A stretch of 64,000 nucleotides of DNA, taken from contig CAZQLY010000001.1 in assembly GCA_964594455.1 (NCBI GenBank), forward strand, positions 133,989 through 197,988. The letters are read 5' to 3'. A program made the translations under genes and the position numbers. The first letter of the stretch is position 1, and each line of letters begins with the position of its first letter. The notes under the pieces are model-generated. The model made no database searches and was not told the DNA's origin. It was given only the letters and a program-made list of their open reading frames with translations. The DNA comes from an uncultured Gammaproteobacteria bacterium (GTDB lineage: Bacteria; Patescibacteriota; Patescibacteriia; JAHIZJ01). Positions 4 through 60,496 of the stretch are shown one piece after another.

Positions 4-219
4 TTGGAAAACCTGAAACTAGTTTGCAGTGAACTAGGCATGATTACCACGACATATCCATTCACAGTTGCCAAGGTAGATAAAAACTTTAAAACCTCCA
101 ATGAACCAATTGAAAAAAAGTTAAATTATTTCGAAAAAAAATTAGAAAAATTTACTGCTGAATTTGAATGGTATCTGGAGGCTTTAAAAGTGCAGAGAAA
201 AAAAGGGCTGCCTTTTTAA
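4..219 (+). CDS. 3' end of a hypothetical protein; its 5' end lies outside the window
   Basis: ORF runs from the window edge to a TAA stop; no recognisable motifs. Confidence 0.3.
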   Translation: MENLKLVCSELGMITTTYPFTVAKVDKNFKTSNEPIEKKLNYFEKKLEKFTAEFEWYLEALKVQRKKGLPF

Positions 220-290
220 AAATAAAAAAACTTAGCTAATTTAATATAATTGTGCTAAAATTTATTTAGTTAATAATTGAAATAGCTATT

Positions 291-34973: not shown

Positions 34974-35546
34974 TTAGGTGGTTGGATTGGATCGGAGGCG
35001 CTTGATAGGAATAACTTCGAAAAGTTCAGTGCCGTATTCAAGTACCGCTCCTTTTTCCTGAAGCACCCTGATTATCCTGACAGCGTCGAAATCAGTTACT
35101 TCTTCATAGCGAGGACAAGACTCTCGACCCGTGTCGCGCCAGATGGACCCGATTTTGATATCAAAGTGATTGCCAAGCACATGGGCGCAGCTGATAATAT
35201 CATTTTTGGCAAAACATCTGGGTGTCCGGGTGGAACCGCCGGATCGCCGGATCTTTAGCCGATAATCTGCCGCTACAATGGGTGACCGGATGACATAACG
35301 CGGTGGGTTGGGAGATGCCTGTTTAGCGCTAGAAACTGCAACCGGCGGCCTGGAGCGAGTAACTGTGGCGAGTTTCTTACTGAGAGTGTATTGATAGCAG
35401 CGAAACAAAGAAAACCATCTTCGCTTGATTGTTACATCAAGACTGATTCCGGTGCTGGCAGAAGAGCAAGCGATATGTTTTTTGAAATCATTAGGGTGAC
35501 CCCACACATATCGCCTTAACCAGCCGATAATATCCAGAAAGAGCAT
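34974..35546 (-). CDS. Hypothetical protein, moderately GC-rich; possible HNH-like nuclease (weak)
   Basis: AAGGAGG SD 5 nt upstream; GHPND...H and SCAH..GNH arrangement is reminiscent of HNH but not diagnostic. Confidence 0.4.
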   Translation of the reverse strand: MLFLDIIGWLRRYVWGHPNDFKKHIACSSASTGISLDVTIKRRWFSLFRCYQYTLSKKLATVTRSRPPVAVSSAKQASPNPPRYVIRSPIVAADYRLKIRRSGGSTRTPRCFAKNDIISCAHVLGNHFDIKIGSIWRDTGRESCPRYEEVTDFDAVRIIRVLQEKGAVLEYGTELFEVIPIKRLRSNPTT

Positions 35547-57372: not shown

Positions 57373-59109
57373 TTATTGTCTTTCTGTAACTGACTTTTCT
57401 AGATTTTTGATAAAGGAAGATATAGAAACGATGGAAACTTTGTCGTCTCCTCGAGCCCTAACGTGCAACTTGCTGCTCTTTAGCTCTTTATCTCCGATTA
57501 CCAATATGTAAGGGGTTTTTTGCTTGATCGCTTTGCGGATTTTATTACCTACCGTTTCATTGGCGCTGTCTACATAAACACGCAGGTTGTGTGATTTGAA
57601 TTCTTCAGCCAATTTCTCCGAAGGCTTGATATGTGCAGATCCTACCGGGACGATTTGAATTTGCACTGGAGACATCCAAACAGGAAAGGCTCCGGCGTAA
57701 TGTTCAATGATAATGCTCAAGAATCTTTCCATTGATCCGGCTACCGCAATATGAATCATCACCGGTCTAGCCTTTTTACCTTTATCGTCGGTATATTCCA
57801 GCTTGAATCTCTCGGGTAGATTGAAGTCTAGCTGTATTGTGGAAAGCTGCCAGGTGCGGCCCAATGAGTCCTCGGCTTTGAAATCTATCTTGGGACCGTA
57901 AAAAGCAGCCTCGCCTTCGCAAATATCATAATTTATTTTTTTTTGATCTAAGAAATCTTTGAGTAGTTTTTCTGATTTTTTCCAGATTACATCACTGCCG
58001 AGATATTTATCAGGTGTTTTTGGATCACGCACTGACAGCTCAACCTTGATAGGAAACCCGAATACTTTGTTGAATTTACTAATAATGTTATAGGCTCGTT
58101 CAGCTTCAGTGGTTATTTGGTCCGGACGACAGAATATATGCGTATCGTCTATGGTTATAGATCTGACTCGGGAAAGTCCCAGCAGTTCGCCCGTTTGTTC
58201 ATCACGGTACATTTTGGTAGTTTCGGCTAAGCGCACGGGCAAATCACGATAACTACGCGGCAGGGAAGAGTAGATCATCACATGATGAGGGCAGTTCATA
58301 GGTTTGAGTACAAATTCCTCGCTTTTGCCTTTGACATAAAAGATATCGTTTTTAAACTTATCCCAATGCCCAGACGTTTTGTAGAGATCACTTTTAGCAA
58401 TATGCGGTATATCAACCAGCTCATAACCCTGCTCTGATTTTAATTCATTAAGAAGTTTGTTAACTTCATTCATCAAGATGGTACCTTTGGGTAAATAAAG
58501 AGGTAGTCCCGGACCGACTAAATCAGAGAAGGCGAATAGTTCTAATTCTTGACCCAATTTTCTGTGCTCTCTCTTTTCTGCTTCATCCCTTTGTAGCTGG
58601 TATTCATCTAGCTGTTTTTTTGTGTCAAAAGCTACACCGTATATTCTTTGCATCTGAGGATTTTTTTCATCGCCTCGCCAGTAGGCACCTGCCACAGAGA
58701 TCAATTTAAAAGCTGCTGGATCAATGTCTCGAGTTGTATTGACATGCGGGCCTCCACAAAGGTCGATAAAGTTGGCTGAACGATAAAAAGTAATCGGTTT
58801 TTTATCCCTGATTAGATCTTTAACCAGCTCTTCTTTGAAAGGCTGATCTTTTACAATCTTCTTGGCTTCATCAGCTGAAACCGACAGGCGTTCGAAACTA
58901 ATAGATTTCTTAACAAGCTGACGCATTCTTTTCTCCAGTTTTGGCAGATCCTTAATTGTGATCTTATCTGGTAGGTCAAAGTCGTAATAAAAGCCATTAT
59001 CTATGGTTGGCCCAATTCCCAGCTTGGCATTTGGATACTGCTCTAGAACGGCCATAGCCATGAGATGTGACAGAGAATGTCTAATTTTTTCTAATTGCTC
59101 TTTTTTCAT
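57373..59109 (-). CDS. thrS: Threonine--tRNA ligase (lacks the N-terminal TGS domain)
   Basis: Editing-domain HxxxH (HSLSHLMA), class II core KPMNCPHHVMIY, RVRSITIDDTHIFC, C-terminal anticodon-binding domain; 578 aa. Confidence 0.92.
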   Translation of the reverse strand: MKKEQLEKIRHSLSHLMAMAVLEQYPNAKLGIGPTIDNGFYYDFDLPDKITIKDLPKLEKRMRQLVKKSISFERLSVSADEAKKIVKDQPFKEELVKDLIRDKKPITFYRSANFIDLCGGPHVNTTRDIDPAAFKLISVAGAYWRGDEKNPQMQRIYGVAFDTKKQLDEYQLQRDEAEKREHRKLGQELELFAFSDLVGPGLPLYLPKGTILMNEVNKLLNELKSEQGYELVDIPHIAKSDLYKTSGHWDKFKNDIFYVKGKSEEFVLKPMNCPHHVMIYSSLPRSYRDLPVRLAETTKMYRDEQTGELLGLSRVRSITIDDTHIFCRPDQITTEAERAYNIISKFNKVFGFPIKVELSVRDPKTPDKYLGSDVIWKKSEKLLKDFLDQKKINYDICEGEAAFYGPKIDFKAEDSLGRTWQLSTIQLDFNLPERFKLEYTDDKGKKARPVMIHIAVAGSMERFLSIIIEHYAGAFPVWMSPVQIQIVPVGSAHIKPSEKLAEEFKSHNLRVYVDSANETVGNKIRKAIKQKTPYILVIGDKELKSSKLHVRARGDDKVSIVSISSFIKNLEKSVTERQ

Positions 59110-59336
59110 AATTGTAATAATTTAAAAATCCCAATCAATGTTCCTTGTTTGGGACCCTGTTATTCGGGCGGTTCCACCCAATTTCTTTCTTTAGCCGATG
59201 CCAAAGAGAGCGCTCATTGAATTGTCTCTTATAGTTTAGGTCGCAGTTGACTTGGGCCATTGGCCTAACCAGTTTGGTAATCTGGTCAATCACTATAAGT
59301 GTTTATAGAATATTTGAATCTGAATAATCTGTCAAG
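59110..59336 (-). promoter_or_regulatory. T-box leader (tRNA-sensing riboswitch) upstream of thrS
   Basis: Minus strand: TTGACA promoter; Stem-I region with an AGUGA (GA/K-turn) motif and an ACC Thr codon in the expected specifier position; T-box sequence UUGGGUGGAACCGC; then terminator ucccaa-N14-uuggga with U5, 30 nt before the ATG. Confidence 0.6.
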
Positions 59337-59338
59337 AA

Positions 59339-60496
59339 TTACCTTATCCGGACTTCAATATTATCCACTAAGGTTGGCGTTCTAAACACCCAGAATGGCG
59401 AGAATTGTATTTCCACGTTTTCTACTTTGGGGAATTGGGCAAAGTACCGCTGGACATCATTACGATCCATATTGACCAATTTAATACGGTCAAACATGGA
59501 ATGCGAGAGCGTAACGTTCTTGGTTCCCGATATGGTTACTCTCAGACTGGCGACTTGGTCTTCAACATTGAAATTATCTATTACATAGGTGTAAGGAGTG
59601 TCAGTATCCAATGTTAATTTAGTATTATTGGGAAGCTGTCCGGCGGTTTTTTCGTGAGCTAAGGCAATAACTTCATCAGCGTTATAACTTAAAGCTACAA
59701 CATGCAGGCTGGTAGTAACATAAAAGGAATTTACTTGGGCATTGGGTTCGACTGAGGCTTCTTCGCTGAGTAGTTCTTTTTTAGTGGCTTGTATTTTATA
59801 ATCTGCATTTAAATAATTTAGCTGAGTTTCAATATCATCCAAAGCTTGATTGTAGGCTGCTTGAAAGTTGTCATTCTTGGCTTTAACAATATTATCTAAG
59901 GTGGCTACGGTTGTGGTAGTGGTTCCGCCAGTCATTTTTTCAGTACTTTCACCATAGATCTTATCTTGGAGACCTGGCCAAAGTCCTGGAATAGTGAAGC
60001 GCATAGGTTCGACCTCTCCAGCCAGACCGGGTTGGTCAGCTGTTACTGATACGGAAACTTGACCGCCTGGAGGCACATCCACGCGTTCGTCTGTTCTGAA
60101 TAAGATTCCAGTTTCTGACAACAGTCTGGTGGTAGCAATCAGAGGCTGTGTACTAGAGTAGTTGTTATGAATTGTAACTTGACCAGTTGCCTTAGATTCG
60201 ACTTCTGATCCTACAGTAACTTCAGCATACTCATTTGTCAGTGAAACGTTTGATTCGAACACCACCCCGGCAACTGCTGGTTCGCTGGTGTTTTCATCTT
60301 CCGGATTGTTGACTATCTCGATTAGGGTGCTAACCGTGTATGGTTCGTCAGAGACTGTAACCCAAATAATTGTATTAGAAAAGGAAAAGTAGACTATCAG
60401 AGCCAATACGATTACAACCGCTATAGAAAAAGTAATAATTAAAGTCCGATAGTAATTCTGTATTTTAATTTTGTGGATTGATTTTTTCTTAGTCAT
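59339..60496 (-). CDS. Membrane-anchored hypothetical protein
   Basis: One N-terminal TM helix; Thr/Val/Asn-rich extracytoplasmic domain; no motif. Confidence 0.55.
   Translation of the reverse strand: MTKKKSIHKIKIQNYYRTLIITFSIAVVIVLALIVYFSFSNTIIWVTVSDEPYTVSTLIEIVNNPEDENTSEPAVAGVVFESNVSLTNEYAEVTVGSEVESKATGQVTIHNNYSSTQPLIATTRLLSETGILFRTDERVDVPPGGQVSVSVTADQPGLAGEVEPMRFTIPGLWPGLQDKIYGESTEKMTGGTTTTTVATLDNIVKAKNDNFQAAYNQALDDIETQLNYLNADYKIQATKKELLSEEASVEPNAQVNSFYVTTSLHVVALSYNADEVIALAHEKTAGQLPNNTKLTLDTDTPYTYVIDNFNVEDQVASLRVTISGTKNVTLSHSMFDRIKLVNMDRNDVQRYFAQFPKVENVEIQFSPFWVFRTPTLVDNIEVRIR

Follow-up and report, generated by a model that had tools for sequence, protein, structure and literature searches.

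The leader of thrS in the window (the whole stretch of DNA that was analysed, 64 kb long) is very probably a real and conserved T-box attenuator. Sequence, folding and comparison with homologous leaders make it likely that this RNA senses tRNA-Thr to control transcription of thrS, and that it represents a structurally distinct, CPR-specific subclass of T-boxes. Through its discriminator domain the element belongs to the T-box superfamily, and it is neither a class I T-box nor a member of the "ultrashort" class II; its decoding module has, as far as the literature that we found goes, not been described before. A search for papers linking T-box riboswitches with the CPR, the Patescibacteria or individual CPR phyla found none, which, given its incomplete coverage of the literature, is a weak sign of novelty.

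Locus and organization of the leader

The leader occupies a 229-nucleotide intergenic gap and is read from the minus strand, with a hypothetical gene (59339-60496) on one side and thrS (57373-59109) on the other. The best ThrRS relatives are all from Patescibacteria, and the organism from which the window comes is therefore taken to be a Patescibacteria (CPR) MAG. In the 5' to 3' direction the leader comprises a promoter-like site, a module of about 73 nucleotides (59299-59228), a linker, the purine string GAGCG, Stem III, an AA dinucleotide, the T-box, the remainder of the antiterminator and a terminator (Table 1). As a whole it folds with a free energy of -53.7 kcal/mol (z = -3.78 against shuffled sequences). 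Boxes of the form TTGACA and TAxxxT occur at equal distance in relatives of the window leader, and on the consensus match alone the transcript is predicted to start near 59300, at the 5' end of helix P1. The ATG of thrS (59109) lies 14 nucleotides past the U-run, and no Shine-Dalgarno sequence was found inside the switching hairpin of the window leader. No tRNA genes were found in the 64-kb window.

Table 1. Position of the thrS leader elements and of the gene that they are predicted to regulate
Feature	Position	Strand	Basis or remarks
Promoter-like site: TTGACA (59335-59330), 17-nt spacer, TATTCT (59312-59307)	59307..59335	-	10 of 12 consensus matches
P1, 5' strand CUUAUAGU, pairs with 59235-59228	59292..59299	-	In MFE fold
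GAUUG junction motif, in place of the canonical K-turn GAUGA	59287..59291	-	In all 10 leaders obtained from ThrRS homology alone
H1, candidate specifier hairpin: ACCAG / loop A-UUACCAA-A / CUGGU	59268..59286	-	Covariation, RNAalifold
Variable arms: H2 GGCC-AAU-GGCC (59265-59255), H3 GUC-AACUGC-GAC (59251-59240)	59240..59265	-	Fold
3' junction C-UAA	59236..59239	-	C in 42/44 leaders; UAA in 38, CAA in 4, UAG in 1, UGG in 1
P1, 3' strand ACUAUAAG	59228..59235	-	MFE fold, covariation
Single-stranded linker AGACAAUUCAAU (CAAU 59224-59221), then GAGCG (59215-59211)	59211..59227	-	RRRxG purine string beside Stem III
Stem III: CUCUCUUUGGC / AUCG / GCUAAAGAAAG	59185..59210	-	Rfam alignment and fold
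AA (59184-59183) and T-box: A1 5' UUGGG (59181-59177), bulge UGGAACC (59176-59170), A2 5' GCCC (59169-59166)	59166..59184	-	
A2 loop GAAUAACA, A2 3' GGGU (basal G.U pair), A1 3' CCCAA (59153-59149)	59149..59165	-	
Intrinsic terminator: hairpin GUCCCAAACAAGGAACAUUGAUUGGGAU (59155-59128) and U-run UUUUU (59128-59124)	59120..59155	-	Fold
thrS, predicted regulated gene, 578 aa	57373..59109	-	Pfam tRNA-synt_2b, HGTP_anticodon, tRNA_SAD

Detection and phyletic spread of the leader

At gathering thresholds the Rfam library returned nothing from the whole 64-kb window, not even a tRNA. With permissive filters the T-box family RF00230 matched 59147-59315 at 28.3 bits (gathering score 93), and was the sole Rfam family at E <= 1 in a scan of the whole window. 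The RF00230 search proposed in an earlier note on this DNA thus gave a match with E = 2e-4 on a 601-nucleotide region, but one that lies below the gathering score and has E = 0.022 on the whole window. The alignment with the family model is good, with high posterior probability, for the 3' half from Stem III on, but it deletes 87 positions of Stem I and has 8 nucleotides in their place. The low score is accordingly attributed to the absence of a canonical Stem I. The other leaders of the family described below score 22-35 bits or go unreported in Rfam, and the thrS leader of a Firmicute (L075) reaches 76.5 bits, which is also below 93. The absence of a significant RF00230 hit, which the earlier note had named as a ground for dismissal, would by itself almost have led to rejection of the T-box.

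To collect related leaders, the sequence flanking the closest ThrRS homologues, whose identity is 57-77%, was retrieved. Of the 12 closest relatives 11 have the leader: in nine it stands directly upstream of thrS (L002, L081, L083, L084, L086, L087, L089, L090 and L091), and in two it precedes an operon, NUDIX-thrS in L082 and GNAT-thrS in L092. It was not found in the 215 nucleotides examined upstream of thrS in L001, the closest relative of all (77% ThrRS identity). The view that the element is almost unique, which came from a stringent search for the motif at 80 thrS loci, confined to the sequence directly upstream, was overturned by looser, operon-aware scans. Metagenomes were scanned with the pattern GATTG, N80-110, AANNTGGGTGGNACCGYCC, which placed no constraint on the codon in the loop or on the discriminator position. 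This returned 76 loci, and 17 pattern matches were dropped as chance occurrences in GC-rich coding sequence. After removal of duplicates and chance matches the set contains 58 unique thrS-type leaders, 44 of them non-redundant, from CPR genomes and metagenomes. As GAUUG, AA and the larger part of the T-box were prescribed by the pattern, the invariance of these elements in the larger set is partly due to sampling, and the set that is unbiased for them consists of just the 10-12 leaders derived from ThrRS homology.

In 48 of the 58 cases the ThrRS gene follows the leader directly or with one small ORF in between; the remaining 10 contigs are too short to show it, and conflicting genes were encountered in none. 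Between the hairpin and the start codon lie about 20 to more than 200 nucleotides, and entire ORFs coding for GNAT or NUDIX proteins can intervene. Across ThrRS proteins that share 45-67% identity the elements of the leader are kept in the same order, with compensatory changes in four helices.

The discriminator domain and the terminator

The T-box consensus that had been noted on the minus strand, AAAUUGGGUGGAACCGC, is indeed present at 59183-59167, with a single mismatch in its 14-mer core; in the whole window chance alone would give about 0.55 matches with up to two mismatches. Together with the conservation of the leader in 11 of 12 relatives, this core bears out the earlier claim of a T-box leader upstream of thrS in a CPR genome. 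Two further T-box-like 14-mers, at 35227(+) and 53110(+), were set aside as chance matches, and the Rfam E-value scan reports neither of them; the one at 35227(+) sits in GC-richer, coding-like sequence.

Published T-box rules for the discriminator domain are observed in this RNA. These are the RRRxG-Stem III-AA rule (PMC7583486, PMC7778990), the UGGNACC bulge and the basal G.U wobble of helix A2, the latter two likewise being among the published discriminator rules (PMC7583486; PMC7778990). The antiterminator, formed by UUGGG, the UGGAACC bulge, GCCC...GGGU and CCCAA, has a folding energy of -10.7 kcal/mol, and the terminator hairpin one of -11.2 kcal/mol (z = -2.67). The segment UCCCAA (59154-59149) is common to both, so that the two folds are mutually exclusive, as had been supposed when the 5' half of the terminator was first said to pair alternatively in the antiterminator.

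Among the 44 non-redundant leaders GGUGGAACCG is invariant, a part of it being required by the search pattern, and it also occurs in every ThrRS-derived leader. Helices A1 and A2 of the antiterminator are paired in 90-98% of the cells across these leaders, and the pair 176:210 covaries, with C-G in 23 and U-A in 15. The basal G.U of A2, reported to act as the principal steric sensor, is replaced by G-C in 16 of 44. Upstream of the T-box, the purine string takes the form RAGNG in 43 of 44 leaders, and CAAU is found in the linker in 22 of 44. Reading of the alignment places a hairpin of variable length at the position of Stem III in most members; Stem III looks absent in L092. A structural descriptor scan of 1.25 Mb of collected sequence recovered no antiterminators besides those of thrS and glyS leaders.

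In 57 of the 58 leaders the CCCAA strand forms part of a hairpin behind which at least 5 of 8 nucleotides are U. Some members, such as L087, L089 and L090, have interrupted U-tracts. The near-universal U-run terminator, the variable distance to the start codon and the intervening genes point to transcription attenuation rather than to sequestration of a Shine-Dalgarno sequence.

The proposed 5' decoding module

The module shared by the family consists, in order, of the 5' strand of P1, GAUUG, hairpin H1, one or two variable hairpins, C-UAA and the 3' strand of P1, after which the linker follows. In the window leader P1, H1, H2 and H3 together form a four-way junction. The region of the variable arms is 19-47 nucleotides long in the family and has no conserved sequence columns; it holds two hairpins in 25 of 44 leaders and one in the other 19.

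This structure was laid on a MAFFT alignment of the 44 leaders (A2) that was built without structural information. Standard pairs fill 90.0% of the cells, against 72.3% in column shuffles, and the covariation score amounts to 0.571, compared with 0.225 in shuffled alignments (0 of 500 reach the observed value) and at most 0.147 when the pairing partners are slid by 1-3 columns. Changes on both sides are seen in all 8 pairs of P1 and all 6 pairs of H1, and pairs 1-5 of H1 are formed in 93-100% of the 44 leaders with 4-7 pair types each. Unsupervised, RNAalifold recovered H1 from the alignment, and it did not recover P1, which there spans a gappy region. P1 is therefore founded on the pair counts and on an alignment-free test with equal search freedom, in which cognate strands give -6.13 kcal/mol and non-cognate strands -3.93 kcal/mol (0 of 10,000 permutations). 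Its outer pairs are weaker than the inner ones, being formed in roughly 55-70% of sequences. Unconstrained MFE folding of the isolated module yields P1 in 31, H1 in 33 and both in 24 of the 44 leaders.

The UUG of the junction motif may pair with the UAA at 59238-59236, leaving GA bulged. A UUG:YAR pairing can be drawn in 44 of 44 leaders, with changes on one side only, and the mini-helix appears in the MFE folds of 3 of 44. This one-sided variation and its rarity in the MFE folds make the pairing tentative. A pseudoknot between AUUG and the CAAU of the linker was also considered and is topologically unlikely, since only 2-4 nucleotides would have to span the 8-bp P1.

The Stem-I-like region with a GA/K-turn motif that the earlier note had described does not survive this analysis as a canonical Stem I, given the 87 Stem I positions deleted from the Rfam alignment. 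A K-turn was rejected for the thrS family, as the motif is GAUUG rather than GAUGA and faces UAA on the 3' side, and so was a reading of the module as a K-junction, there being no tandem G.A pairs. The alignment has no conserved columns for a Stem II S-turn or F-box, a search that an S-turn without sequence conservation would escape, and none for a T-loop or for the AG bulge and distal loop.

The candidate specifier triplet and the expected tRNA

The candidate specifier of the window leader is the ACC triplet at 59278-59276, which occupies loop positions 3-5 of H1, with a U before it and an A after it. The threonine codon ACC had been reported before and is present; its setting is, however, the terminal loop of a short hairpin and not the 3' side of an internal specifier loop. 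The 7-nucleotide loop of H1 has the consensus Y(43/44)-U(38)-A-C-C(43)-R(43)-A(40), with ACC at fixed positions in 43 of 44 leaders. The loop of L117 has ACA followed by G, which is still a threonine codon, and in L110 ACC is shifted by one within an 8-nucleotide loop. The signature of the loop is that of an anticodon loop, with Y32, U33, R37 and A38. The window leader has one more ACC (in GACCUAA, 59241-59239), which the family does not conserve.

Four related leaders (L133, L141, L151 and L158) stand upstream of a GlyRS gene (NF003211, 490-530 bits, cutoff 312). They were caught by chance in the thrS scan, GATTG being merely a part of their -35 box. Their short helix of 4-6 bp ends in a loop with GGC, the next nucleotide being a purine or U, and below this helix an NNN-GA / GA K-turn can be read by eye. 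They share the discriminator half and the terminator with the thrS leaders and lack arms like H2 and H3. The loop triplet thus changes with the regulated synthetase, being ACC or ACA before thrS and GGC before glyS, the behaviour by which a specifier is defined. A "C rule" for the third codon position has been described for T-boxes (PMC7778990), and the third-position C of both ACC and GGC follows it.

On the side of the discriminator, the bulge UGGA calls for a tRNA with U73. A search for tRNA-Thr in 120 loci found only tRNA-Thr(CGU) genes of Saccharibacteria (contigs L023 and L037); these end in GGC-U-CCA and hence have U73, though they come from other organisms and represent a different isoacceptor than GGU.

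Alternative explanations

A class I T-box of the usual kind, whose standard Stem I has merely diverged in sequence, would account for the canonical 3' half, and the AT-rich, fast-evolving genomes of the CPR could depress covariance-model scores, as even the Firmicute leader L075 stays below the threshold. Such a reading is very improbable in view of the 5' half. Only 8 nucleotides take the place of the deleted Stem I positions in the Rfam alignment, and just about 73 separate the transcript start from the linker, a stretch that by covariation folds into P1, H1 and some small arms; a GAUGA...GA K-turn is missing, the ACC triplet is in a terminal loop, and the T-loop and AG-bulge columns are not conserved. 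Just as little credence is given to a chance resemblance or a decaying relic without regulatory function. The element stands directly behind a promoter-like site with its terminator intact, and order and compensatory changes in four helices are maintained across ThrRS proteins of 45-67% identity; what speaks for a relic is the Rfam score under the threshold and the case of L001, whose 215 nucleotides without a leader imply that the element can be lost.

Somewhat less remote, and still improbable, is a translational switch like that of actinobacterial ileS, in which the downstream hairpin would hide the ribosome-binding site. The hairpin with at least 5 U in 8 nucleotides in 57 of 58 leaders weighs against it. 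In the window the hairpin stops 18 nucleotides before the ATG, with no GGAGG-like sequence at Shine-Dalgarno distance, and the spread of hairpin-to-start distances from about 20 to over 200 nucleotides, with ORFs in between, fits control of operon transcription. In its favour, the T-boxes with terminal-loop specifiers known earlier, the "ultrashort" ones, are all translational (bioRxiv 10.1101/2023.02.28.530422), the U-tracts of L087, L089 and L090 are interrupted, and intrinsic termination in CPR bacteria is little known. We also regard it as unlikely, a little more so than the translational switch, that the 5' junction does not decode a tRNA at all, and that it serves as an operator for ThrRS or pairs in cis through CCAA:UUGG, with the T-box half acting alone or being vestigial. 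The ThrRS of E. coli binds mimics of the anticodon arm in its own leader, where they form a translational operator; the H1 loop resembles an anticodon loop, and its CCAA is complementary to UUGG in the 5' strand of A1. Yet the loop carries a codon (ACC, ACA) and not a threonine anticodon (GGU, UGU, CGU). The glyS relatives similarly have the codon GGC and not GCC, in loops that are not complementary to UUGG. Moreover, the triplet switches with the synthetase gene, and its third-position C obeys the C rule.

Comparison with known T-boxes

With the class I T-boxes of RF00230, such as those of Bacillus subtilis tyrS, thrS and glyQS, the thrS family shares the RRRxG-Stem III-AA arrangement, A1, UGGNACC, A2 and a terminator that vies with the antiterminator for the 3' strand of A1. 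It also shares with them a codon-like specifier that fits the aaRS gene, adherence to the C rule, a purine after the codon and a probable complementarity of UGGN to the discriminator base of the tRNA. In contrast to class I, it lacks the long Stem I, the GAUGA/GA K-turn, the internal specifier loop with its S-turn, the AG bulge, the distal double T-loop platform for the tRNA elbow, Stem II and the IIA/B pseudoknot; the four-way junction of about 73 nucleotides stands where the Stem I region would be.

The ultrashort Stem I T-boxes have been described as translational, as occurring with ileS only, and as needing both the S-turn of Stem II and the IIA/B pseudoknot, on top of a K-turn (bioRxiv 10.1101/2023.02.28.530422; PMC7583486); cited in these papers are Sherwood et al. 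2015 and the structures from Nocardia farcinica (PDB 6UFM) and M. tuberculosis (PDB 6UFG). The thrS family resembles these actinobacterial RNAs in carrying its specifier on a short helix (5-6 bp in H1), in the apical loop, and in lacking an elbow platform. It differs from them in being of the terminator type where they sequester the Shine-Dalgarno sequence, in regulating thrS (and glyS in relatives) rather than ileS, and in having no canonical K-turn and no conserved S-turn or F-box where they have a K-turn, an S-turn and a pseudoknot. Its additional hairpins, moreover, lie inside the closing helix and not after it.

The glyQS T-boxes, the minimal class among natural ones with Stem I, linker, Stem III and antiterminator, are similar in that a single-stranded linker leads from the decoding module to Stem III, a separate Stem II is absent and regulation is transcriptional. 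They nevertheless retain a full-length Stem I, the K-turn and the platform, and the CPR glyS leaders are smaller still. Transcriptional T-boxes are held to need an elbow-binding platform for fast capture of the tRNA, and a truncated Stem I barely binds without Stem II (PMC7583486). The thrS-family RNA has neither the platform nor the Stem II that this literature calls for.

A parallel of another kind is offered by the thrS operator of E. coli, where thrS is likewise regulated through a leader hairpin with a 7-nucleotide, anticodon-like loop. The operator loop is, however, an anticodon mimic that binds a protein, whereas the loop in the window presents a codon upstream of a T-box and a terminator.

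Proposed mechanism

In the predicted mechanism, the first 73 or so nucleotides transcribed would fold into the P1/H1/H2/H3 junction as transcription proceeds from a start near 59300. The H1 loop would then display ACC, probably in a U-turn like that of an anticodon loop, and could form a loop-loop complex by pairing with the anticodon, GGU, of tRNA-Thr. Two anticodon loops that are complementary to each other are known to associate unusually tightly. If the tRNA is uncharged, its 3' end UCCA would pair with UGGA in the bulge of the T-box and stabilise the antiterminator, which may allow read-through into thrS. If the tRNA is charged or absent, CCCAA would instead pair downstream and form the terminator with its U-run. 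One may guess that H2 and H3 act as a scaffold or a side support that replaces Stem II for the weaker ACC:GGU helix, as the glyS relatives, whose GGC makes three G-C pairs, lack such arms. The absence of arms from the glyS leaders parallels a published argument for glycine T-boxes that lack Stem II (PMC7583486).

Beyond this locus, we are inclined, with some reserve, to the view that the Patescibacteria (CPR) may have T-box classes of their own that are invisible at Rfam thresholds. These would present the codon in a 7-nucleotide loop resembling an anticodon loop and capture the tRNA in a kissing complex. The thrS class would be terminator-type and built on a four-way junction, with neither K-turn, platform nor S-turn, and the glyS class might be the smallest natural T-box seen so far.

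Implications

T-boxes are targets of antibiotics and the textbook illustration of how one structured RNA can read another. Structural models at present recognise two architectures, one with a long Stem I and an elbow platform and the other combining a short Stem I with an S-turn in Stem II. A third way of decoding, if it drives a kinetic terminator switch, would test which contacts are truly required for tRNA capture. If functional, the thrS-family RNA would speak against the view that co-transcriptional T-boxes need a platform and that a truncated Stem I needs Stem II. It may also offer a compact tRNA-sensing module for engineering, of about 190 nucleotides in the thrS form and about 125 in the glyS form.

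Gene regulation in the Patescibacteria has been described as virtually unknown (PMC11665869). Genetic tools for these organisms are now emerging, and riboswitches have been proposed there as tools for expression. Annotation at Rfam thresholds appears to miss T-boxes systematically in the CPR part of bacterial diversity. The leader studied here would be the first concrete example of control of aminoacylation by a cis-regulatory RNA in the Patescibacteria and, being conserved in dozens of lineages with clean covariation, should be of interest both for RNA structural biology and for the biology of the CPR.

Antiterminator and internal complementarities

The literature describes the basal pair of antiterminator helix A2 as a conserved G.U wobble and as the element that chiefly senses the aminoacyl group, by steric means (PMC7583486, PMC7778990). 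Among the 44 non-redundant CPR (Patescibacteria) thrS leaders of the family, this pair is G.U in 28 and G-C in 16. In the leader of L092 (1735-1925), helix A2 is enlarged by an insertion of about 50 nt, a type of insertion that the literature links to translational T-boxes; this leader apparently also lacks Stem III.

The linker directly 3' of P1, the closing helix of the 5' module, contains CAAU in 22 of the 44 leaders and (C/A)AAU in 31. A CAAU:AUUG pseudoknot between this linker and the GAUUG junction motif looks unlikely on steric grounds. In the window leader CCAA, in the 3' portion of the specifier loop, and UUGG, in the 5' strand of helix A1, are complementary, a match that may be no more than a consequence of the ACC codon together with the conserved AA; the glyS leaders described below show no loop complementarity to the UUGG of A1.

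Coordinates of leader features and related loci
Feature	Location	Remarks
Helix A2 basal pair, window leader	G59169:U59154	columns 175:211 of the 44-leader MAFFT alignment
Linker CAAU, window	59224-59221	complementary to AUUG 59290-59287 of invariant GAUUG
CCAA in loop of specifier hairpin H1, window	59277-59274	complementary to UUGG 59181-59178
GNAT/NUDIX-thrS operons	L092 1931-2485; L103, L120, L126, L135, L139, L142, probably also L113; L082 1998-2498; L110, L154, L168	
Saccharibacteria thrS leaders, L009, L012, L015, L016	some 100-190 nt before thrS	
thrS leader, UACCA in internal loop of short Stem I	L044 2640-2880	Magasanikbacteria MAG
thrS leader, UACCA in internal loop of short Stem I	L129 2980-3086 (-)	GC-rich metagenomic contig
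Small T-box leader before glyS	L133 ~67-260 (+)	
Small T-box leader before glyS	L141 170-340 (+)	
Small T-box leader before glyS	L151 2280-2412 (-)	
Small T-box leader before glyS	L158 3163-3282 (-)	

Operons and gene neighborhoods

In about a dozen family members the leader, as a tRNA-Thr sensor, would control a two-gene operon in which thrS comes second; the first gene encodes a RimJ/RimL-type GNAT acetyltransferase (PF13302) in some, such as L092, and a NUDIX hydrolase in others, such as L082. A DUF559 gene lies between leader and thrS in L138. The gene order dnaE, hypothetical, thrS, miaB, miaA is kept in several relatives, where the hypothetical gene gives a weak Baseplate_J match. Neither a tRNA gene nor an Rfam match at gathering score was found in the window (1-64000). 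The closest ThrRS relative, L001 (77% identity), has no T-box in the 215 nt available upstream of thrS (L001 1-215); immediately before the gene, this region holds a promoter as well as an intrinsic terminator. The lineage seems to have recently lost the leader.

Other leader architectures

Four low-GC metagenomic contigs carry very small T-box leaders before glyS, its product confirmed in each case as GlyRS. In all four there is a K-turn and a helix of 4-6 bp whose end loop shows GGC; after a linker come Stem III, a T-box with UGGA and a terminator. Stem II and the tRNA-elbow-binding platform are both absent, and these leaders could be the smallest T-boxes in nature. The thrS leaders of L044 and L129, neither reported by Rfam at E <= 1, have a short Stem I with an internal loop that carries UACCA in its 3' strand, and look like intermediate architectures.

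The thrS leaders of Saccharibacteria (those in the table, L013 and L073) have a diverged T-box core, CCGGUGGAACCCCCC, and a hairpin with a 7-nt loop (GCUUAG-UUACCAC-CUAGGC; loop CUCACCA in L013 and L073). This hairpin is followed by interleaved CGCG/CUGAC/CGCG/GUCAG segments, which look like a pseudoknot. Given these 7-nt-loop hairpins with ACC, terminal-loop specifiers seem to be widespread in CPR, on several different scaffolds.
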